A program made the translations under genes and the position numbers. Below the pieces are notes generated by a model, which worked only from the letters and a program-made list of their open reading frames with translations, had not been told where the DNA came from and did no database searches. Shown here piece after piece: positions 6,985 to 52,941 of a DNA stretch of 64,000 bases. Positions within the stretch are counted from its first letter, which is position 1. Every line of letters begins with the position of its first letter. Source of the stretch: an uncultured Bacteroidota bacterium (lineage in GTDB: Bacteria; Bacteroidota; Bacteroidia; AKYH767-A; OLB10); NCBI GenBank assembly GCA_900696575.1, contig CAADHD010000017.1, positions 824-64,823 on the forward strand, read 5' to 3'.

Positions 6985-8217
6985 ATGACGGCAGAAATCA
7001 TCACCATTGGCGATGAAATACTCATCGGGCAGATAATAGACAGCAATTCGGCATGGATGGCACAACAGCTTAATTTCATCGGCATCAAAGTAAAACAAAT
7101 CACTTCGGTATCCGACAGTGAGACGCACATCATAGAAGCACTTAATGCAGCCATTCAGCGCGCTGACATTATTCTGATGACAGGCGGCCTCGGACCCACC
7201 AATGACGACCTTACCAAACCCACTCTTTGCAAATACTTCAACACCGGTTTGCGGTTTGATGAAACAGCTTACCGCGATATTGAAGCATTATTTAAACAAC
7301 GCGGCAGGGAAGTAACTCCGCTTAACCGCATGCAGGCCGAAGTACCTGAAAATTGTAAAACCATTTACAACAAAAACGGCACGGCTCCGGGCATGTGGTT
7401 CGAAGAGAAAGGCAAAATTTTTATTTCCCTTCCCGGTGTTCCTTTTGAAATGAAATCCATGATGACGGAAAGCGTATTACCATGGCTTGCCGGGAAATTC
7501 AACCTTCCGCCTGTAATTCACCGCACCATCCTTACGCAGGGAATAGGCGAATCCATTTTAGCCGATAAAATAAAGGAATGGGAAAATGCATTACCGGCTG
7601 ACCTACGGCTTGCTTATTTGCCTTCCGTTGGAATGGTAAGGTTGAGGCTTTCTGCAGTTGGTGAGAAAAAAAAGACATCAGCCGAAATCAATTCGCAAAT
7701 TGAAAAAGTATTACCGTTGATTGATAAATATGTTTTCGGATTTGATGACGATACTTTGCAAAGCAGGGTAGGAGTGGAACTGAAAAAAAGGAATGCAACA
7801 TTGGTAGCTACTGAAAGCTGCACGGGTGGATACGTGGCACATTTAATTACATCGGTGCCCGGCAGCTCGGCTTATTTTAAAGGAGGAATTGTTTCATACT
7901 CCAATGAAATGAAAGTAGATGTACTGCATGTATCGGCAGATACACTTAAAAAACACGGAGCCGTAAGCGAAGAAACCGTAATGGAAATGGCAGAGAATGC
8001 AAAAAGAATTTTTAAAACAGATTATGCAGTTGCTACTTCAGGCATTGCCGGCCCTGATGGCGGCACACAGGAAAAACCCGTTGGTACTGTCTGGATTGCC
8101 GTAGCCACCCCCGATAAAATCATCAACCGCAAATTGCAGCTTGGCAATAAACGGTTACACATTATTGAAGTGGCTTCGCAAAGTGTATTGCATTTGCTGC
8201 TGAAAGACCTAGTTTAA
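6985..8217 (+). CDS. cinA: CinA family competence/damage-inducible protein (nicotinamide-nucleotide amidohydrolase)
   Basis: N-terminal MoaB/MogA-like domain (MTAEIITIGDEILIGQIIDSNSAWM) plus a C-terminal CinA deamidase domain. 410 aa. Confidence 0.85.
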   Translation: MTAEIITIGDEILIGQIIDSNSAWMAQQLNFIGIKVKQITSVSDSETHIIEALNAAIQRADIILMTGGLGPTNDDLTKPTLCKYFNTGLRFDETAYRDIEALFKQRGREVTPLNRMQAEVPENCKTIYNKNGTAPGMWFEEKGKIFISLPGVPFEMKSMMTESVLPWLAGKFNLPPVIHRTILTQGIGESILADKIKEWENALPADLRLAYLPSVGMVRLRLSAVGEKKKTSAEINSQIEKVLPLIDKYVFGFDDDTLQSRVGVELKKRNATLVATESCTGGYVAHLITSVPGSSAYFKGGIVSYSNEMKVDVLHVSADTLKKHGAVSEETVMEMAENAKRIFKTDYAVATSGIAGPDGGTQEKPVGTVWIAVATPDKIINRKLQLGNKRLHIIEVASQSVLHLLLKDLV

Positions 8218-8334
8218 CGGATTTGTTTTTTTTCATCCCATTTTGATTTTTCAGAATTTATTTACATTTGTATTTCTGATTTGGATCATGATCCGGCTCG
8301 AAAACACCAATCTCCCTCTGCACGGTTCTTGTAA

Positions 8335-8352
8335 TGTGTGTGTGTGTGTGTG
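8335..8352. repeat. (TG)9 dinucleotide microsatellite
   Basis: Perfect tgtgtgtgtgtgtgtgtg within intergenic repeat element A. The homologous copy at ~50988 has only (GT)4. Confidence 0.9.
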
Positions 8353-8388
8353 ACGACACGCTAAAAACCCAAACCGAGAAAAGTATAA

Positions 8389-8436
8389 TCCCGTTTTATC
8401 TCGTCCATGAAAGACGAGACAATACGGGATTTTTTA
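8389..8436 (+). terminator. rho-independent terminator downstream of cinA
   Basis: Hairpin TCCCGT...ATCTCGTC-catgaaa-GACGAGAC...ACGGGA followed by TTTTTT. Confidence 0.5.
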
Positions 8437-8600
8437 TGCTTATCGGTATGGTCGTATGGCTTGCAGCAGAATTGTATCAGGAAATGGAAAAGAAACAGGT
8501 AATAAGTTTATAAAACAAAATTAAAAGGAGGAAGCCGAAAATCCCTGCCTGCCCTTGGCAGGCTTTAACAGAGTAGGCAGAAAATAAAAACCAAATCAAT

Positions 8601-8732
8601 ATGTTAAAAAAATCATTTACTTTGGCTCTTGCAGTCATGCTAATGATGACCCTGAGCTGTCGGAAAGAACAACAGGTTAACACCCTTAACAAGAAAGGAG
8701 GTAATACGGCTGCCTTACGGCTGGCGCCTTAA
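8601..8732 (+). CDS. short lipoprotein signal-peptide ORF (probable 5' fragment of an interrupted gene)
   Basis: MLKKSFTLALAVMLMMTLSC with a lipobox Cys. It ends at a TAA that is in frame with the next ORF. Confidence 0.35.
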   Translation: MLKKSFTLALAVMLMMTLSCRKEQQVNTLNKKGGNTAALRLAP

Positions 8733-8813
8733 GAACTGGAGTCGGTAACCAACGACTTTATTACCCAATCGCTTTCACGGCAATGGAACCTTGGAACGTA
8801 TGAGTACGAAGAT

Positions 8814-9170
8814 GTGGTATTGATGCACGAAGGAGCGTTGAACTACCGCACCTGCACACCGCATGAGTATTATGATGAGATTGCCATAGACAGCGCTTCA
8901 AGGTTCATCACCATTGAACAATCAGAAACTGATGGGCCATGGGTTGTAAGTCCCGATGTACTGAGAGAATTCTGGGAAGATTTACTTACTCATGCACAGC
9001 AAACAGCCGAACGCTTAGAAAACGGAGAGTACTTCAACATAGTAGCTGATCTTGAAATCGGCCATGTTGACTACGAAGAAAAAAGGATAAGAGTGAGTGT
9101 GATAATGGTTGCAGGCATTAATATCTATGACATAAAAGCCTGCAATTTTGATCCAAATACAGATTATTAG
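8814..9170 (+). CDS. hypothetical protein (GTG start; probably the middle segment of a decayed lipoprotein gene)
   Basis: 118-aa ORF with no ATG start. It is in the same frame as 8601-8732 upstream and 9243-9623 downstream, separated from each only by single stop codons. Confidence 0.35.
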   Translation: MVLMHEGALNYRTCTPHEYYDEIAIDSASRFITIEQSETDGPWVVSPDVLREFWEDLLTHAQQTAERLENGEYFNIVADLEIGHVDYEEKRIRVSVIMVAGINIYDIKACNFDPNTDY

Positions 9171-9242
9171 AATTCTGCTTCTTTTGGCCCTTGTAATCCT
9201 GGTTCAGGAAGTTTCTCACTTGGCTCATGGGACATTATCCAA

Positions 9243-9623
9243 ATGAAATTAAATCCTTTTCTTAATTGCTATGAGCAGTATAATTGTGACTATTTTTCAG
9301 ACATTTCATGGAAATCCTTTTCGAATTATTATCCCCCTTGGCCCCCGTATAATCAATGTGGAACAGGATGTAATTCGCTTTCTGACATTTGGATGGGAAC
9401 ATACAATCAGTGTCTTACACCAACAGAATTAGAATGTGAGCGAGATGCGATTAGATCATTTTCTTATTGTAATAAACCTCTTGTTTCAGGTAGTTTAGTT
9501 CAATACAAATTACCAATTGTATATAATGTGACAGTTGATCCATTTTATACAAATCCTCAAGTCGCCTTTCATGGAGCGCAAGTTTTTTATGGCAAATGCA
9601 GTTCTTATTCAAGTGAAAATTAA
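9243..9623 (+). CDS. cysteine-rich hypothetical protein
   Basis: 126 aa with ~10 Cys (NCYEQYNCDY, CGTGCNS, CLTPTELECERD, YCNKP, GKCSSY). Very AT-rich. Confidence 0.35.
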   Translation: MKLNPFLNCYEQYNCDYFSDISWKSFSNYYPPWPPYNQCGTGCNSLSDIWMGTYNQCLTPTELECERDAIRSFSYCNKPLVSGSLVQYKLPIVYNVTVDPFYTNPQVAFHGAQVFYGKCSSYSSEN

Positions 9624-9625
9624 TT

Positions 9626-11137
9626 ATGAATATACAAATTGTTTTAAAATTTATTAGAAATCTTGTTTTAAGTATGATAATGACTGGGAATTTATATTCC
9701 CAGTCATTTGAATATATATACCAAACAACCGATGATGAAGTAATTTCTGATGCGGTTCAAGATGTTAAAGGAAATTATTTTTTAGTTGGAAGCATCGGTA
9801 ATAGCCTGCCACCATCACAGGGCGATAAAAGTGGATTAATTATTAAAATTGATAGCCTTGGGCAGTATATCGATTCTAAAATTATCAACAGCAATCAGGA
9901 TTACATTAGTTTGGGTAATATAATCCTTGATTCAGATTCTACATTCTTAATAACTGGTTATAGGATACCAATAGGAATGTCGAACAGTTTAATTTATACT
10001 TTAAAATTAGATACAGCTTTGAATATACTCTCTGAACAAAGCTTTGGGGACTTTGCTTATAACAATCAGATTTCTAAAATATATAAAATCAATCTTGATA
10101 CACTGATTTTTGTTGGAAGTGTGCAAACATATTCTCCCCAAATTAATTCAGACATAATTTTCGGAATGATGTCAACTAATGGAGATTCAATTAGTATGTT
10201 GAAATTTGGAAATCCTAATGGTTTTCAAATGGGATTTGATTTGTTAGTCTATAATAATAATATTGATTCTGTATATTTGTTTGTTTATGGAATGCTTAAT
10301 ACACCAATGTATCCATTGGAAGTTATTAAACTGAGTTCCAATTTTGGTTTGGATAGTATTGCTATAATACCTATATCCTCAACAATTAGAACTATGTCTG
10401 CAAAATGGATAAGCTTAACTACTTTCTTGGTTGGCACATCTGGATATGAAAACGTATGGTCATTAGATAAAAGTTTGGGTATAGGTAAGTTTGATATAAC
10501 TTTTAATTGTATTGATACATTGTTTTTTGGTGTGGCTGATACAAATGAACATGAAGCAGGTTTTTGTATAGATTTTAAAACTGTTGACAAGGTTTATTTT
10601 GGTGGAACAAAGAACTCTTCTCTATTCTTTTCTCCTTTCGAATCATATTATTACATCATAAGAATGGATACGAGTTTTAATGTAAGTTTTGTTAAATCTA
10701 TCGGATATCAAAATGATTGTCTTGGCCTATACAAAGTCCTCGCCACCAGCGATGGCGGAGTGCTGCTTGCGGGTACCAAATACGATGCAGCCACAGCCAA
10801 CGGGCAGGAGCGCGATATTTATGTCATCAAACTCGATTCGCTGGGCAACTATGTAACCGGTACCGGCAACAGCCCCATTGAACAGGTTCATGATTTTATT
10901 GTTTATCCCAACCCTGCTGCTTCACAACTTACGTTTTAATACTCACCACCAAAATCAACCGGCCATGCAACTGTTTACAATGTTTTAGGTGAAGCAGTGC
11001 AACAATTCACATTACCCCCTAACACCACCCGCCAGCAACTCAACATTACTCACTTGTCAGCAGGGCTTTATTTAATAAAGGTAGAGGCATATGGGAAAAG
11101 CGGAGTAAAGCGGTTTGTAAAGCTTGCCTGCCGATAG
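9626..11137 (+). pseudogene. T9SS C-terminal-sorting-domain protein (beta-propeller-like) interrupted by an in-frame TAA at 10937-10939
   Basis: The ORF 9626-10939 ends ...VYPNPAASQLTF*. The same frame continues YSPPKSTGHATVYNVLGEAVQQFTLPPNTTRQQLNITHLSAGLYLIKVEAYGKSGVKRFVKLA to TAG at 11135-11137. Together these form a canonical Por-secretion CTD split by a single nonsense codon. Confidence 0.6.
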
Positions 11138-11371
11138 GTATGGGAGTAGAAGAAAAAGCTAAATGAAAAATGAGCTCAGAAGTAACCAAGTCCGTAGTCG
11201 CCAGAGTGCAGTGCCGGGCTTCAGGCTACGGAGAGCGGGGGTTGGTGAAAAGAACACCTGCCAGGGCAAAATAAACGGTTACATATTATTGAAGTGGCTG
11301 CGCAAAGTGTATTGCATTTGTTGCTGAAGGAACTGAAATGATAGGTACATACAACCAGCAACAAAGCAGAG

Positions 11372-33922: not shown

Positions 33923-34033
33923 ATCAGCGAGCGAAGATAAACACGGCATTCAATCATGCTGCAAGAATGCAATTGCAATTGTCTCTATATGACGGTTGAT
34001 AACCATTCACCTACCTTTGAACCTTCAATTATT

Positions 34034-35326
34034 ATGAAATCATTCAGAAAAAAGAGAACAGATAAACCTTCATTCGATAAAAAGCGAAGTAAAAACAAGG
34101 GCGAAAGACCATTCAGGAAATCAGGTAAACCAACTTTTGAAAAAAGACGAGATGAAAGCGGAGGCGAAAGACCATTCAGGAAAACAGGTAAACCAACTTT
34201 TGAAAGAAGACGAGATGAGAGCACAGGCGAAAGACCATTCAGGAAATCAAGTAAACCTGCATTTGAAAGAAAACGAGATGAAAGCGGAGGCGAAAGACCA
34301 TTCAGGAAAACAGGTAAACCAACTTTTGAAAGAAGACGAGATGAGAGCACAGGCGAAAGACCATTCAGGAAATCAGGTAAACCTGCATTTGAAAGAAAAC
34401 GAGATGAAAGCGCAGGTGAAAGACCATTTCGGAAATCAAGTAAACCTGCTTTTGAAAGAAGAGATGAAAGCGCAGGCGATAGACCATTCAGAAAATCTGA
34501 CAAACCTTCTTATCCTAAGAGAAGAGATGACTTCGGTGAGAAGAAGCCATTTAAGAAATCATTTGCTCCACAGCAAAAGCAAACAGAAAGTTCAGGGTTA
34601 ATTCGCCTGAATAAATACATTTCTAACAGCGGAATCTGCAGCAGGAGAGAAGCGGATGAATTAATCAAAGCCGGATTGATTATGGTGAATGGCAAGATTA
34701 TAACTGAAATGGGGACTAAGATTAATGCAGAGGATGAGGTAAAATATAATGGTGAGAAGATGCGCAATGAACGCAAACAATACGTTCTTCTGAATAAACC
34801 TAAAGATTACATCACAACAACAGATGATCCTGAAAACAGGAATACCGTGATGGAACTTATTAAAGGAGCCTGCAAAGAGCGTGTTTATCCTGTCGGCAGG
34901 CTTGACCGTAATACTACTGGGTTGCTTTTGTTTACCAATGACGGTGAACTGGCAAGAGCATTGATGCATCCATCTTCCAACATAAGCAAGTTGTATCATG
35001 TTGAAACAGATAAGCCGGTGCGTTACGAAGATTTAAAAAAGATAGCAGAAGGAATTGAACTGGAAGACGGTATTGCGCACGTAGATGCAGTAGAGTATGA
35101 TCATCCTGCTTTGAAAACACATATTGGTTTGCAGATTCACGAAGGCAGAAACCGTATTGTACGCAGAATCTTCGAAACGCTCGGTTATGAGATTCACAAA
35201 TTAGACCGTACCATGTTTGCAGGATTAACCAAAAAAGACCTTCCGCGCGGGCGTTGGCGCCATCTCAGCGAGATGGAAATAAATATGCTTAAAATGATTA
35301 CCGGGCGGAAGGCTAAAAAAGATTAA
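34034..35326 (+). CDS. rluB: RluB/RsuA-family rRNA pseudouridine synthase with an N-terminal basic tandem-repeat extension
   Basis: S4 domain (IRLNKYISNSGICSRREADELIKAG) and catalytic region (YPVGRLDRNTTGLLLFTNDG). The N-terminus carries ~8 x 21-aa repeats of (GERPFRKTGKPTFERRRDES). Confidence 0.8.
   Translation: MKSFRKKRTDKPSFDKKRSKNKGERPFRKSGKPTFEKRRDESGGERPFRKTGKPTFERRRDESTGERPFRKSSKPAFERKRDESGGERPFRKTGKPTFERRRDESTGERPFRKSGKPAFERKRDESAGERPFRKSSKPAFERRDESAGDRPFRKSDKPSYPKRRDDFGEKKPFKKSFAPQQKQTESSGLIRLNKYISNSGICSRREADELIKAGLIMVNGKIITEMGTKINAEDEVKYNGEKMRNERKQYVLLNKPKDYITTTDDPENRNTVMELIKGACKERVYPVGRLDRNTTGLLLFTNDGELARALMHPSSNISKLYHVETDKPVRYEDLKKIAEGIELEDGIAHVDAVEYDHPALKTHIGLQIHEGRNRIVRRIFETLGYEIHKLDRTMFAGLTKKDLPRGRWRHLSEMEINMLKMITGRKAKKD
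34099..34520 (+). repeat. ~63-bp coding tandem repeat array (~7-8 units)
   Basis: Repeating ggcgaaagaccattcaggaaa(t/a)caggtaaacc(a/t)(a/g)ctt ttgaaagaagacgagatgaaagc units. They are in frame and encode an Arg/Lys-rich low-complexity N-terminus of rluB. Confidence 0.85.
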
Positions 35327-41230: not shown

Positions 41231-41324
41231 TGCGCAAATCTCCAACTCTTCTCATGCCATCCTGTTCTTGGTTTGTCATGTCGGGGAACGAGGCATCTCC
41301 CCATATCTCAACGAATTCATCTAA

Positions 41325-41362
41325 GCAAAAAGCCCTCCCGTTATTAATAACGGGAGGGCTTT
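41325..41362. terminator. bidirectional rho-independent terminator
   Basis: AAAAAGCCCTCCCGTTAttaaTAACGGGAGGGCTTTTT palindrome with U-runs on both strands. It lies between convergent genes. Confidence 0.6.
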
Positions 41363-41380
41363 TTGTTTAAAGTTTTCAGC

Positions 41381-47831: not shown

Positions 47832-48566
47832 TCACTTTACCACATCAAGCATGCCGTAACCTTCATCGGTCAGCATGCCAATGCCTGTTTGCCAGATGAA
47901 ACGGTGAACGTCCGGATGTGCATGAAGCGTAAACGGAAGCAGATATCCAGTCATCGGCAGGCCTGAACTGCATTTGTATTGCCGGGCAAACTTTTTCCCT
48001 TCATGATGCACTTTATTGATGTATTCGCTGTCGGGAATAATTTCAAATTCTGCGTATTGGTTGAGTTGTTCTTCAGTAAAACCTGCCTTCTCCATTTTTT
48101 CTATCACCGAATTGTAAAGCATGTCGCTGAATTCATGCGAAGCCGGGTCAACAACCTGCATCGCTTTTTCGGCATCGTTATTCGGGTTTACCAATACTAT
48201 CGGAGAAATGCAGAGGTACCGCATCCGTGTTTGAAAATCGGGGTCTTCAATTTTAATTTTTCCTTTTACGCGAAGGGTAAGCCGGCCTATAATCAGTTTC
48301 GGATGCTCAAAAATTTTCTCTTTCAACTGCCTTACTTCATCCTCTTTTCTTCCCGATATAACCAAAGTGATTTTTGCCGAAAGAAGTTTCATGTATCCGT
48401 TCTGGATTTTGGACGTTGCTTTCAGCGATGAAAAATTGAAGTCGTACCGGTTATTGGAAATCGAATCAATCATCGGCCCAAGCGCATCGTTAATCAGTTT
48501 CTGATGATGCAGCGGAATGGTGTTCGTTGAGTTTTTCTCGCGGACAAAAGTGATTTTGTAACGCAT
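47832..48566 (-). CDS. Cas6-like RAMP endoribonuclease homologue (orphan)
   Basis: 244 aa. N-terminus MRYKITFVREKNSTNTIPLHHQKLINDALGPMIDS is like Cas6 (MR.K.TL....IPLNYQY). The C-terminal glycine-rich loop GIGMLTDEGYG matches GhGxxxxxGhG. No array or cas genes in the window. Confidence 0.5.
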   Translation of the reverse strand: MRYKITFVREKNSTNTIPLHHQKLINDALGPMIDSISNNRYDFNFSSLKATSKIQNGYMKLLSAKITLVISGRKEDEVRQLKEKIFEHPKLIIGRLTLRVKGKIKIEDPDFQTRMRYLCISPIVLVNPNNDAEKAMQVVDPASHEFSDMLYNSVIEKMEKAGFTEEQLNQYAEFEIIPDSEYINKVHHEGKKFARQYKCSSGLPMTGYLLPFTLHAHPDVHRFIWQTGIGMLTDEGYGMLDVVK

Positions 48567-49869: not shown

Positions 49870-50730
49870 TTACTTTTTACTGGCCTTGAACAGTATTTCT
49901 TTTTCTGCCGATGTTAAACTTTCATAACCCGACTGACTGATTTTATCCAGTATGCGGTCAATGGTTTCCTGATCGGTAACCTCAGCGTTTTTTTTGCGGT
50001 GAACCACGCGCATAACCGGTTTGTTCTTTGAAAAGAGATTCTCAATAAATGTTGTAAGGCTATCCATCCATGCACCGATATTAGTTCTGCTGCGTAATTG
50101 TTTAACATAAATGAATCCGAACAATGCACCGCCAAGATGGGCAATATGTCCACCGGCATTAGGCCCTGCCATACTCAGCAGGTCTAAAACAACAGCAGCA
50201 ACAGCAAGATATTTCAATTTTACCTGACCGAAAAAAAGTAACCCGATAGAGTAGTCAGGAACTAATGTGGCGGCAGCAACGGTAATGGCCAATACACTGC
50301 CCGATGCCCCGATAACACTACCAAATTCGCGTATGCCTGAAAACAAAGGCAATGCCTGATAGGCAGTCATAAACAACACTGCTCCCGTCATTCCGCCAAT
50401 CAGATAAACACTCAATAATTTACGGCTGCCGAGAAATTCCATAAAAATCCTGCCCATCCAGTACAACCAAAGCATATTGAACAATAAATGCAGAATACCG
50501 CTATGAACAAACTGATAAGTAATAATACCCCAGGGATGTGCAAGAAAAGATTTCCATCCCGAATACATGGCAAAGTAACCGTTAACCGTTTCCGTAAATC
50601 TGCTGTTGTTGCCGCCAAGGCTGATGAACACTCCCGTCAGATTGATAATGATAAACACAGCTACATTCAGTATAATGAGCCGCGTAAGCACATTCCCAAA
50701 CTTTAACTCATGTCTTAATTCATCAAGCAT
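49870..50730 (-). CDS. rhomboid family intramembrane serine protease
   Basis: GASGSVLAI (GxSG) and HLGGALFG (catalytic His) within a 6-7 TM core. Confidence 0.8.
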   Translation of the reverse strand: MLDELRHELKFGNVLTRLIILNVAVFIIINLTGVFISLGGNNSRFTETVNGYFAMYSGWKSFLAHPWGIITYQFVHSGILHLLFNMLWLYWMGRIFMEFLGSRKLLSVYLIGGMTGAVLFMTAYQALPLFSGIREFGSVIGASGSVLAITVAAATLVPDYSIGLLFFGQVKLKYLAVAAVVLDLLSMAGPNAGGHIAHLGGALFGFIYVKQLRSRTNIGAWMDSLTTFIENLFSKNKPVMRVVHRKKNAEVTDQETIDRILDKISQSGYESLTSAEKEILFKASKK

Positions 50731-50954
50731 TTTTTCAATTCCGGTTTAGCGGTACTATTAAATACGATGGCTGTCTTAATGCGCACAAAGATATTCATCC
50801 AATACCATGGTTTGTGATACACACTATTAATGGCCGAAGGTCAGGTTTTAATCGTTGTTGATATAAGTAGCCGTTTGCTGAAAGTTTATTCTCCTTTTTT
50901 ATTTCTCAAAAGTTATCTGATTTTGTATTCCCGGTATGGATTATGACCTGTTCC

Positions 50955-51085
50955 GGAGACATAAAACTCCCACTGCACGATTTCAGTAGTGTGTGTGACG
51001 GCACGCTGACTACCCAAGCTGATAAAATTTTAATGCCACTTGCCTTTCAGAGACGAGAGGTGATTTTGTTACGTCTGTAAAAAAT
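50955..51085. repeat. intergenic repeat element A' (homologue of 8301-8436)
   Basis: ctcccactgcacgatttcagtaGTGTGTGTGacgGcacgctgactacccaagctgataaaa aligns with ctccctctgcacggttcttgtaaTGTG..TGacgAcacgctaaaaacccaaaccgagaaaa. Confidence 0.6.
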
Positions 51086-51275
51086 AGTTTTCCGTTTCCA
51101 TTTTTTTTATCACCGGTATTTCCGTGCTTATCAGAAGGGCTTCCGTGCTACGCAGCGAAAGGGCGCCCTTCAGGGCTACGGGTGCGCGCAGAAATTTCAG
51201 TTTACTGCATACATCAGGGCTACAGCCTGTTCAAAAATGTGAGAAAGTGCGAACAGGCAGAACACCCGTCACGGG

Positions 51276-51345
51276 TAAAAACTAAATGAAAAATGATTTC
51301 AGAAGTAACAAACTCAATAGTTGCCAGAGCGCCAGGCAGGGCTAA
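51276..51345. repeat. intergenic repeat element B' (homologue of 11152-11230)
   Basis: aaaactaaatgaaaaatgatttcagaagtaacaaactcaatagttgccagagcgccaggcagggc aligns with aaagctaaatgaaaaatgagctcagaagtaaccaagtccgtagtcgccagagtgcagtgccgggc. Confidence 0.6.
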
Positions 51346-51426
51346 AGACTATGGACATAGGGAAATTTACGAAGCATACTATTCACTCCTAAACTCCCAA
51401 CTCCGAACCAATTACTCCCCGCTATC

Positions 51427-52941
51427 CTAACTCCACTCCTCATCCATCCTTCTGTTTCTTTGTTTTTTCCGCCACTGCATCCGGCCGAATCCGAATACGA
51501 TTATAGCGGCAATGGGCAAAAGAAAATTGGCATACTTGTAAAATGAGCGTTGGCCGTCTTCCAGTTGGTCAAGCGGACGGGAAGTAATTCCTTTGGTACG
51601 CAATTCCATCAGTCCTGTATTATCGGTAAGCCATTCTAAGGAGTTGACAAGCAGGTTAACATTATCAGGAGGAAGCTGAGAGGCACGTTCACCGCTGCCG
51701 TTAACTCCGAAACCGCCATTGCTAATCACAATCATTCTGGAAGGGGTGTTGCCCGAAAGTTTTCCTGTAAAAGCGGCTCCCATTACAATTTTTGATTGAG
51801 GGAAGTCGGCATTGTTCCATTGCTTCTGAACATTGAAAAACACCGGTGCCGGTTGCGTTCCTGCCTTGTCTGATGAGAGTAGCAGCGGAGTAAATATTAC
51901 CGATGAATCACCGTGGTAAGTTATCGGACTGGCAAACTGCAGAATGACCTGTTCCAGGCCTTTCACAGCCGGATGTTCTCCAAACTTGCTTACAATGGGG
52001 AAGTAGGGAAAACTGATGTTGTTTATAAAGCTGAAAAATCCCTGTTGCTGCCTTACCTGTACACTGCCGCACTGCGCATCAATTACTAACTGGTCTTCAA
52101 TGATGATATTTTTTTGTTTCAGCCATTCTTCCAAACCTGTGGTCTTACTGTTGGCCATGCTGGTTTGCAGGTCGGCTGTCTGGCGGCTATAAGAGATAAA
52201 AATATTTTTTCCCTGAGCGAGGAAGGCATCTAACTGAGCTAAATGAGTGGAAGGAAAAGAATCTTTGGCATCAATAATGGCAAGCGTGGAATATCGGTCG
52301 GGAATAGGGAGAGAATCATTCATTTCATATTCTTCCACATTGTTAAGTACTAACAATCCGGCAGAGGCTTGTTGCAAATCTTTCAGCTCGGCTTCGCCAT
52401 GTCCTTTCAGCAATGCCACTACAGGCTTATCTTTTACACTGAGTTTTTTAATGGCTGATGAAAGTGCAAACTCCATAGGCGAACCGGGCTGCATAAAGGG
52501 AATGGATTCTTTTTTATCGCCCAATTGAATCTGTGCACCGAGGTAAGCCTTCTGTTGTTTCATCTGGTCTTTATCGCGCACATTAATCACTACGGGCTGT
52601 ATGCCGTTTTGCATTGCTTCGGTTTCTTTCTCTGTACTTTCATTTGGGTTGATAAAACTATAAACCACCTTTCCTTTGGATCTGCGGCTGTATTCAATAA
52701 GCAGGTCTTTAAAATCGCGCTTCACTTTTGAAATATCAGGCGGCATGTTATCAGAAAAGTATGCTTTTACAGTAACCGGTTCTTCGAGCGACTTCAAAAG
52801 GTCGGTGGTTGAATTACTGAGTGTATATTCTTTATCCTGCGTTACATCCCATCTGAAAAAATAACGGAATGAAAGCAGGTTGGCCAGTACAAATACAATG
52901 GCGATGATGAGCAGCCGTTGGTTGTAATTCGCTTTTTTCAT
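51427..52941 (-). CDS. gldG: gliding-motility ABC transporter auxiliary component GldG
   Basis: 504 aa with N- and C-terminal TM anchors, downstream of ABC ATPase and ABC-2 permease genes. N-terminus ...FRWDVTQDKEYTLSNSTTDLLKSLEEPVTVKAYFS is typical of GldG. Confidence 0.65.
   Translation of the reverse strand: MKKANYNQRLLIIAIVFVLANLLSFRYFFRWDVTQDKEYTLSNSTTDLLKSLEEPVTVKAYFSDNMPPDISKVKRDFKDLLIEYSRRSKGKVVYSFINPNESTEKETEAMQNGIQPVVINVRDKDQMKQQKAYLGAQIQLGDKKESIPFMQPGSPMEFALSSAIKKLSVKDKPVVALLKGHGEAELKDLQQASAGLLVLNNVEEYEMNDSLPIPDRYSTLAIIDAKDSFPSTHLAQLDAFLAQGKNIFISYSRQTADLQTSMANSKTTGLEEWLKQKNIIIEDQLVIDAQCGSVQVRQQQGFFSFINNISFPYFPIVSKFGEHPAVKGLEQVILQFASPITYHGDSSVIFTPLLLSSDKAGTQPAPVFFNVQKQWNNADFPQSKIVMGAAFTGKLSGNTPSRMIVISNGGFGVNGSGERASQLPPDNVNLLVNSLEWLTDNTGLMELRTKGITSRPLDQLEDGQRSFYKYANFLLPIAAIIVFGFGRMQWRKKQRNRRMDEEWS

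Follow-up and report, generated by a model that had tools for sequence, protein, structure and literature searches.

Elements A and B at two loci of an uncultured Bacteroidota bacterium: candidate ends of a decayed insertion module

Just downstream of cinA in this genome, a short intergenic sequence (A) is followed by a 2.7-kb cargo and then by a second short sequence (B). Diverged copies of both recur in the noncoding region between a rhomboid protease gene and gldG. What are these paired sequences, and how did they come to stand at two loci? The original prediction, drawn from the window (the whole 64-kb stretch of DNA analysed here), took A and B for the ends of a cargo-carrying mobile or recombination element, filled at cinA (locus 1) and empty at gldG (locus 2), or else for members of a structured RNA or regulatory family. 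Four segments are at issue:

8238 to 8455, + strand: element A in its full extent, the left end segment of the insert, as delimited by blastn and nhmmer
50893 to 51090, + strand: element A', a diverged and apparently degenerate second copy of A
11146 to 11250, + strand: element B, the right end segment of the insert, with a hairpin at 11192-11231
51269 to 51373, + strand: element B', the other copy of B; the gldG stop codon is about 55 nt away

The repeats themselves are well founded. When A was compared with the whole 64-kb window by blastn, its sole matches were itself and A' (8238-8392 against 50893-51037, 68.4% identity over 155 nt, E = 4e-18), a similarity far above chance that confirms two diverged copies at the places first proposed. 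Within the segments first delimited, 8301-8436 and 50955-51085, column identity in a MAFFT alignment is 78%, with a 10-nt gap inside a (GT)n run. The homology begins ~60 nt further 5' than had been given, at 8238 and 50893, and it continues weakly beyond the hairpin of A, to about 8455 and 51120. B and B' match over 11154-11239 and 51277-51362 (77%, E = 1e-14, blastn within the window). The surroundings are also as described. A starts about 20 nt past the cinA stop (8217), and A' lies within the 696-bp spacer that separates the rhomboid gene (49870-50730, - strand) from gldG (51427-52941, - strand). The A-to-B order and the + strand are identical at both loci; A and B bracket 2.7 kb of cargo at locus 1, whereas A' and B' lie ~190 bp apart at locus 2 with no cargo between them.

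Only two copies of A and two of B were seen, each as part of an oriented A-B pair. Profiles built from each pair and run with nhmmer detected no further copy, either in the window or across ~150 kb of relatives' loci; the A/A' profile matched these two sites and the allele of a second assembly (L013, described below), and the B/B' profile matched the two sites only. The homology between the two units ends sharply at 8238/50893 on the left and 11249/51372 on the right, and neither their outer flanks nor their interiors are related to one another in local alignments (z 0.3-1.8). Repetition of another kind occurs elsewhere in the window, where a 63-nt (21-codon) unit is repeated in tandem about 8-9 times (33991-34561) within the N-terminal part of a pseudouridine synthase ORF (33956-35326; S4 + PseudoU_synth_2).

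Comparison with relatives indicates how the units came to be there. In a related species (L034, cinA 82% identical in amino acids), the cinA stop lies 70 bp from the stop of the convergent prmC; the DNA to either side aligns with the window, as far as 8239 and again from 11391, and there is no A, cargo or B. The spacer between gldG and the rhomboid gene is 178 bp in L036 (gldG 90% identical in amino acids) and 117 bp in L037-L039 (81%), against 696 bp in the window, and the excess of 520-580 bp is close to the 480 bp of the A'..B' unit. These spacers are not alignable and their boundaries are inexact, so the evidence for insertion at locus 2 is this length excess in two outgroup lineages. Since sister species have short or empty sites, we regard both A..B units as insertions. 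The contrast of empty and filled sites thus survives in part: A and B do appear to be the ends of inserted DNA, but locus 2 carries both ends, and the empty sites are those of L034 and L036-L039. Locus 2 is therefore a second, cargo-less copy of the unit and not an empty target. In L033 and L035, the closest sister lineage (cinA 90% identical in amino acids), synteny breaks straight after cinA, where a gene for a 203-aa Bact_surface_Ig-like protein and other, unrelated genes take the place of prmC (L033 11237-12050, L035 8823-9636). Independent rearrangements downstream of cinA have occurred in at least two lineages.

Homologous ends, a fixed order, unrelated interiors and sites that are short or empty in relatives together make the case for an insertion module with conserved ends. 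The reading that we favour, with a confidence a little short of even, is that A and B are the left and right ends of such a module, specific to this lineage, present twice and surviving as decayed relics without an integrase. A competing account, possible though on the whole we doubt it, sees in A and B no more than the sequences that natively flank one lineage of a lipoprotein/T9SS operon, with A as the 5' flank (promoter and leader) and B as the 3' flank. Together with these flanks and an upstream cinA fragment, the operon would have come from another strain; one junction would be a homologous recombination within cinA and the other an illegitimate join (homology-facilitated illegitimate recombination, HFIR, or 3'-end displacement). 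Locus 2 would then be another such import, or else an ectopic duplicate in which deletion or replacement has since removed the ORFs, and A and B would have no dedicated mobility function. The evidence from cinA, from the cargo and from locus 2 bears on both accounts.

The cinA gene is ORF 6985-8217 (PF00994/PF18146/PF02464). Its last 65-75 nt (8141/8146-8212) recur 3.1 kb downstream, at 11263/11270-11336, so that the insert sits between two copies of the cinA 3' end:

8141 to 8217, + strand: DR1, the functional cinA 3' end (last ~75 nt), the left direct repeat flanking the insert
11263 to 11336, + strand: DR2, the displaced remnant of a cinA 3' end, adjoining the prmC stop (11372)

The two copies are 92% identical over 65 nt (8146-8210 and 11270-11334, E = 1e-18), and the repeat extends to 8141/11263 with a 2-nt indel. 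DR2 stands beside prmC as an unannotated fragment of cinA. At three to four of the five differing sites, DR1 has a derived base and DR2 the base of L033/L034; identity to the cinA end of L033 is 95.5% for DR2 and 87% for DR1; and DR2 encodes ...VAAQSVLHLLLKELK*, like the AAQ...KEL of the relatives. This comparison, which rests on about five sites, suggests that DR2 is the displaced ancestral end of cinA and that DR1 came with the insert. Integrative elements that supply a substitute end for their target gene leave such a duplication behind, which suits the insertion module. A duplicated 3' end of the upstream gene, with the old end shifted downstream, is also the signature of displacement (PMC5361080), and it counts in favour of an imported operon, as does the fact that a third lineage (L033/L035) is rearranged beyond cinA too. 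Against such an import, the part of cinA upstream of DR1 has no stretch of raised divergence: sliding identity to L033/L034 lacks the step that an imported tract would leave.

Between A and B, and reaching into A at its promoter, lie the parts of the cargo operon:

8242 to 8270, + strand: within A, a promoter consensus of the Bacteroidetes type (TTTG-N17-TAcaTTTG), directed towards the cargo operon
8525 to 8579, + strand: DUF805b-like RNA motif in the cargo leader, outside A (RF02914, E = 5e-7; 31.3 bits in a local search, below the gathering score of 35.6)
8601 to 9623, + strand: cargo gene 1, a lipoprotein pseudogene with in-frame TAA at 8730 and TAG at 9168, in no Pfam family
9626 to 11137, + strand: cargo gene 2, a pseudogene of a T9SS-secreted protein, with in-frame TAA at 10937, before the Por_Secre_tail domain

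The in-frame stops at 8730, 9168 and 10937 show that the cargo is a decaying operon, and all three are identical in the window and in the second assembly. Positions 8586-11125 are homologous to an intact two-gene operon of a related species (L047, 85-2646; JGI sample 3300043543), whose neighbour is a gyrB/parE-like gene and not cinA. Cargo gene 1 aligns in a single frame (8586-9617) with an intact 351-aa L047 protein (56.7%, E = 2e-131, tblastn), and cargo gene 2 aligns over 9680-11125 with an intact 488-aa L047 protein (55%). Homologues of gene 2 are 474-500 aa long with the tail intact; in the window the PF18962 tail lies at 10997-11137. A fragment from another sample (P0243) is 86% identical to gene 2 and has Gln where the window has the third stop. 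The AT-richness of the cargo was ruled out as a sign of foreign origin, the intact L047 operon having the same core of 29-35% GC. The DUF805b-like motif contains a 21-nt hairpin insertion and lies 20 nt upstream of the lipoprotein start, not before a DUF805 gene; it is absent at locus 2. Metagenome contigs from many samples break within the cargo at 9023, 10843 and 11094, where two full assemblies agree, and paralogous copies elsewhere in the genome, or further alleles, are possible causes.

Several of these features suit an operon that brought its own flanks. The full promoter consensus in A points into the operon, B begins about 10 nt past the operon stop, and the intact 86% homologue P0243 in another sample means that donors are available. 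The promoter is a lead and not a proof, since the window has two exact matches in all and chance alone would give 3.3. The flanks of the L047 operon, the closest intact one available with its context, are unlike A or B, which speaks against native flanks, although only 84 nt upstream were compared and the operon is 55% diverged.

Locus 2 is where the two accounts part most clearly, and its interior is the segment that matters:

51091 to 51268, + strand: locus-2 middle, with no detectable homology to the locus-1 cargo

If locus 2 were a copy of locus 1 stripped of its ORFs, remnants of ~70% identity should be detectable. None were found: local alignments of the middle with the sequence after A and before B gave z 0.3-1.4, which rules out a cargo remnant. 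The middle does contain a weak B-core-like unit at 51141-51187 (z 2.5). For an imported operon it is awkward that the 190-bp middle retains no trace of operon sequence although A and B are still 68-77% identical to their copies, and that two independent rare events would be needed, both keeping exactly A and B. Nor does A' have a cinA-like anchor beside it: neither such an anchor left of A' (z 1.8) nor a DR2-like sequence right of B' reached significance. It is this occurrence of A'..B' without an operon remnant or a cinA anchor that leads us to favour an insertion module over imported operon flanks. The preference is a slight one because locus 2 has no att-like repeat. Its boundaries show no flanking direct repeat of at least 7 nt and no terminal inverted repeats, so the att-like signature is found at only one of the two copies. 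Near locus 2 there is also a stand-alone Cas6-like ORF (47832-48566, - strand; PF01881, E = 1e-16), in a window with no CRISPR array or other cas gene; its synteny beside the exo/endo-phosphatase and rhomboid genes is kept in L036-L039. A link between this gene and the A'..B' unit was ruled out, because the gene is syntenic in relatives without the unit.

The more specific proposals for an element of this kind (integron, MITE or tRNA island) find no support. No integrase, transposase, invertase or other recombinase was found in the ORFs of at least 150 aa in the 64-kb window, a result that also agrees with the import of an operon. In the search for terminal inverted repeats, the best match of a left end with a reverse-complemented right end was 12 nt, at either locus. 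There is no short target-site duplication: no 7-mer is shared across the locus-2 boundaries, and the locus-1 repeat, at 65-75 nt, is not one. The only tRNA in the window is 12 kb away. Searches for a wider family gave little. The strict A-core pattern CTGCACG-N5-35-GTGTGACGNCACGCT had 15 matches in 185,579 species genomes, all in unrelated high-GC taxa and with no further similarity; this collection evidently lacks the source species and is thus silent on copy number in this genome. The B-core pattern had two chance matches only in the JGI metagenomes, and the A and B patterns had none in IMG/VR. In blastn searches, A matched nothing in a phage collection, and the A'..B' unit nothing in a plasmid collection. 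As the A-core and B-core patterns find nothing real, there is no evidence of a spreading family.

How might an insertion module have produced the two loci? The A..B units are absent in sister species, their ends are shared and their interiors are not, and the cinA 3' end is duplicated. On this basis, the locus-1 module (about 8218-11269) would comprise A, the DUF805b-like leader, the dead lipoprotein and T9SS operon, and B. It may have arrived with a replacement 3' end of cinA, pushing the ancestral last ~70 nt 3.1 kb downstream. The gldG/rhomboid spacer would hold the second copy, whose ends, 68-77% identical to those of locus 1, keep their order but enclose ~190 bp of unrelated sequence. We infer that a recombinase supplied in trans moved the module, and that A and B would have been required in cis, as att-arm-like sequences adjoining attL and attR. 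The present copies would be decayed, integrase-less relics, comparable to cis-mobilizable elements, and on every reading they are probably inert, given the pseudogenes, the indel polymorphism and the degenerate A'. Besides the lack of a recombinase in the window's ORFs of at least 150 aa and of an att-like repeat at locus 2, it weighs against an insertion module that only two copies are known and that the two insertions lie in different target contexts. A bolder reading is that A and B define an undescribed family of small, integrase-less integrative elements in this Bacteroidia lineage, in which the ends are cis sites, or A encodes a guide or helper RNA from its own promoter, while the recombinase lies elsewhere and the interior (an operon, or nothing) is freely exchangeable. 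We consider this unlikely; if true, the cinA event would be a gene-end-restoring integration by such an element.

Variation within the species shows that A itself is unstable. The window is 99.75% identical to GCA_016787965.1 (L013), a MAG labelled 'Bacteroidia bacterium', and the flanks of the two differ by scattered SNPs; within A, L013 has a 2-nt (TG) and a 13-nt deletion (8363-8378; L013 8720-8760). The tract is (TG)9 in the window and (TG)8 in L013 and in one metagenome contig (L004). Five short-read metagenome contigs that reach A from the cinA side and have identical cinA (L001-L005) all end at 8367 or 8371, where the alleles diverge. As these ends coincide with the divergence of the window and L013 alleles, A is best described as an indel hotspot, and the left contig break was ruled out as a sign that A is multicopy. 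Locus 2 is more uniform: A' is 100% identical in three contigs of the same species that span the spacer, two shorter contigs have 1-2 SNPs elsewhere in the spacer, and the locus assembles through at k=31. It also speaks against an insertion module that no presence/absence polymorphism was seen within the species, as locus 2 is identical in the three full-length contigs and both locus-1 junctions are present in every sample examined.

A quite unlikely alternative is that the units work as RNA. In this account, A would be an sRNA gene or a member of a cis-regulatory leader family, with A' as its paralogue, B and B' as a second structured RNA, and the A-B pairing functional. Transcription from the promoter at 8242-8270 would start at about 8277 and stop at the terminator (8436), giving an RNA of about 160 nt. 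The relevant parts of A, besides the promoter, are as follows:

8283 to 8294, no strand assigned: perfect 12-nt palindrome GGATCATGATCC, a small predicted hairpin
8335 to 8378, + strand: hypervariable core, consisting of (TG)9, a GUGU-GACG-ACAC mini-hairpin and an indel-prone A/C-rich spacer
8387 to 8436, + strand: hairpin and T-run at the 3' end of A, intrinsic-terminator-like (arms 8387-8405/8413-8431)

Some of this anatomy is what an RNA gene would have. A combines a promoter consensus with a terminator-like hairpin, and the overlap of A with a strong terminator hairpin, noticed at the outset, is clear: the 19-nt arms are 89% complementary and a T-run follows. The fold of A beats its shuffles (z -3.6), and the blocks CTCCCnCTGCACG and GTGTGTGTGACGnCACGCT, which in A come after the palindrome and before the (TG)9 tract, are conserved between A and A'. 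The 40-nt hairpin of B (11192-11231, CCGTAGTC...GGCTACGG) persists in B', where one pair shows a compensatory double change (G-C to A-U), two pairs are changed on one side and one is broken. However, nearly all of the stability of A is due to the terminator hairpin, and A' (fold z -0.8) has not conserved this hairpin. Its counterpart there is weak, with 9 pairs, and uses different bases; the shared AGACGAGA block forms the 3' arm in A and the loop and (start of) the 3' arm in A'. The 5' palindrome is imperfect in A' (GGATTATGACC), the promoter motif is degenerate there (TGATTTTG, without the -33 TTTG), and the (TG)9 tract of A (8335-8352) is only (GT)4. By these sequence features, A' looks degenerate.

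The natural 13-nt deletion in L013 also argues against a structured RNA, since it abolishes the central predicted stem of A, as do the absence of both copies in sister species and the absence of the A-core pattern from the 185,579 species genomes, among which the source species is evidently not included. At gathering score, Rfam yields tRNA-His only in the whole window and no family for A, A', B or B'; relaxed searches of these four gave only spurious hairpin matches to miRNA, snoRNA and lncRNA families. The earlier suggestion of a structured ncRNA or regulatory family thus finds no backing in Rfam or in the comparison of the copies, and a REP/BIME or terminator family fits no better, as the hairpin of A is not conserved in A' and the conserved part is ~150 nt long and non-palindromic. 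A was also ruled out as coding sequence by the indels of 2, 10 and 13 nt between copies and alleles. Elsewhere in the window, a near-perfect 24+24-nt palindrome with zero spacer (41322-41369, 96% complementary) lies between two convergent genes and is likely a bidirectional terminator.

We give hardly any credence to a phase-variable switch, either an invertible segment (as in Bacteroides invertons) or (TG)n slippage, that controls the downstream operon: a 17/20 inverted repeat (51061-51080 / 51297-51316) at the inner edges of A' and B' does flank a 216-bp locus-2 middle, (TG)n length does differ between strains and the operon encodes surface or secreted proteins, but locus 1 has no equivalent inverted repeat (the arm in B' is conserved in B there, with no partner arm beside A), five locus-2 contigs show a single orientation, the window has no invertase or recombinase, locus 2 has no downstream gene on that strand, and the locus-1 operon is a pseudogene pair.

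These results carry warnings for annotation. The ORFs between A and B are pseudogenes, 11263-11336 is a cinA fragment, and A is a polymorphic spot that breaks assemblies. The discovery of many A..B units with differing contents across the genome would raise the interest of the system.

Which known systems do the A..B units resemble? CIMEs are decayed integrative elements that keep attL and attR without integrase and transfer genes, as in the ICESt1-related islands of Streptococcus (PMC5704250). With its restored target-gene end and no integrase, the locus-1 unit would fit this definition. As in a CIME, it adjoins the 3' end of a protein gene whose terminal segment is directly repeated on its two sides; the element-proximal copy keeps cinA intact, the cargo is decayed and the site is empty in a relative. 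Unlike CIMEs, the A..B units have no known cognate ICE, IME or integrase, and A'..B' has no detectable att-like repeat and sits at a different target. The cinA repeat also has a considerable length, 65-75 nt, with an identity of only 92%, the phylum is another one, and the A..B units are at most putatively mobile.

Displacement of gene 3' ends (C-terminal displacement) is known at Rhs and T6SS effector-immunity loci, with HFIR proposed as a possible mechanism (PMC5361080). The likeness is that an incoming homologous gene end brings new downstream DNA and leaves the old end orphaned downstream. The known cases, however, are polymorphic toxin loci with repeated rounds, whereas here there is one event at the housekeeping gene cinA, and the mechanism alone leaves the second unit, A'..B', unexplained. 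MITEs and other non-autonomous transposons share with the locus-2 unit its short length (about 480 bp), its non-coding nature, its absence in relatives, and conserved ends around a varying interior, but the A..B units lack TIRs and a TSD, the window has no related transposase, and only two copies were seen in 64 kb. Integron cassettes likewise have conserved sequences that bracket variable cargo; here the window has neither intI nor a cassette array, and a promoter-like sequence belongs to the cargo itself. Bacteroidetes invertons are a poor match, as the inverted repeat occurs at locus 2 only, five contigs show one orientation, and no recombinase was found in the window. In all, a CIME or a displaced-end islet is the closest likeness for the A..B unit, which is best read as a relic of a known kind of process, confined to its lineage and low in copy number. 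If this is true, the unit is a small example of how Bacteroidia genomes acquire surface-protein operons at the 3' ends of housekeeping genes and later lose them, and the scars that remain are paired end sequences and an orphaned gene end.
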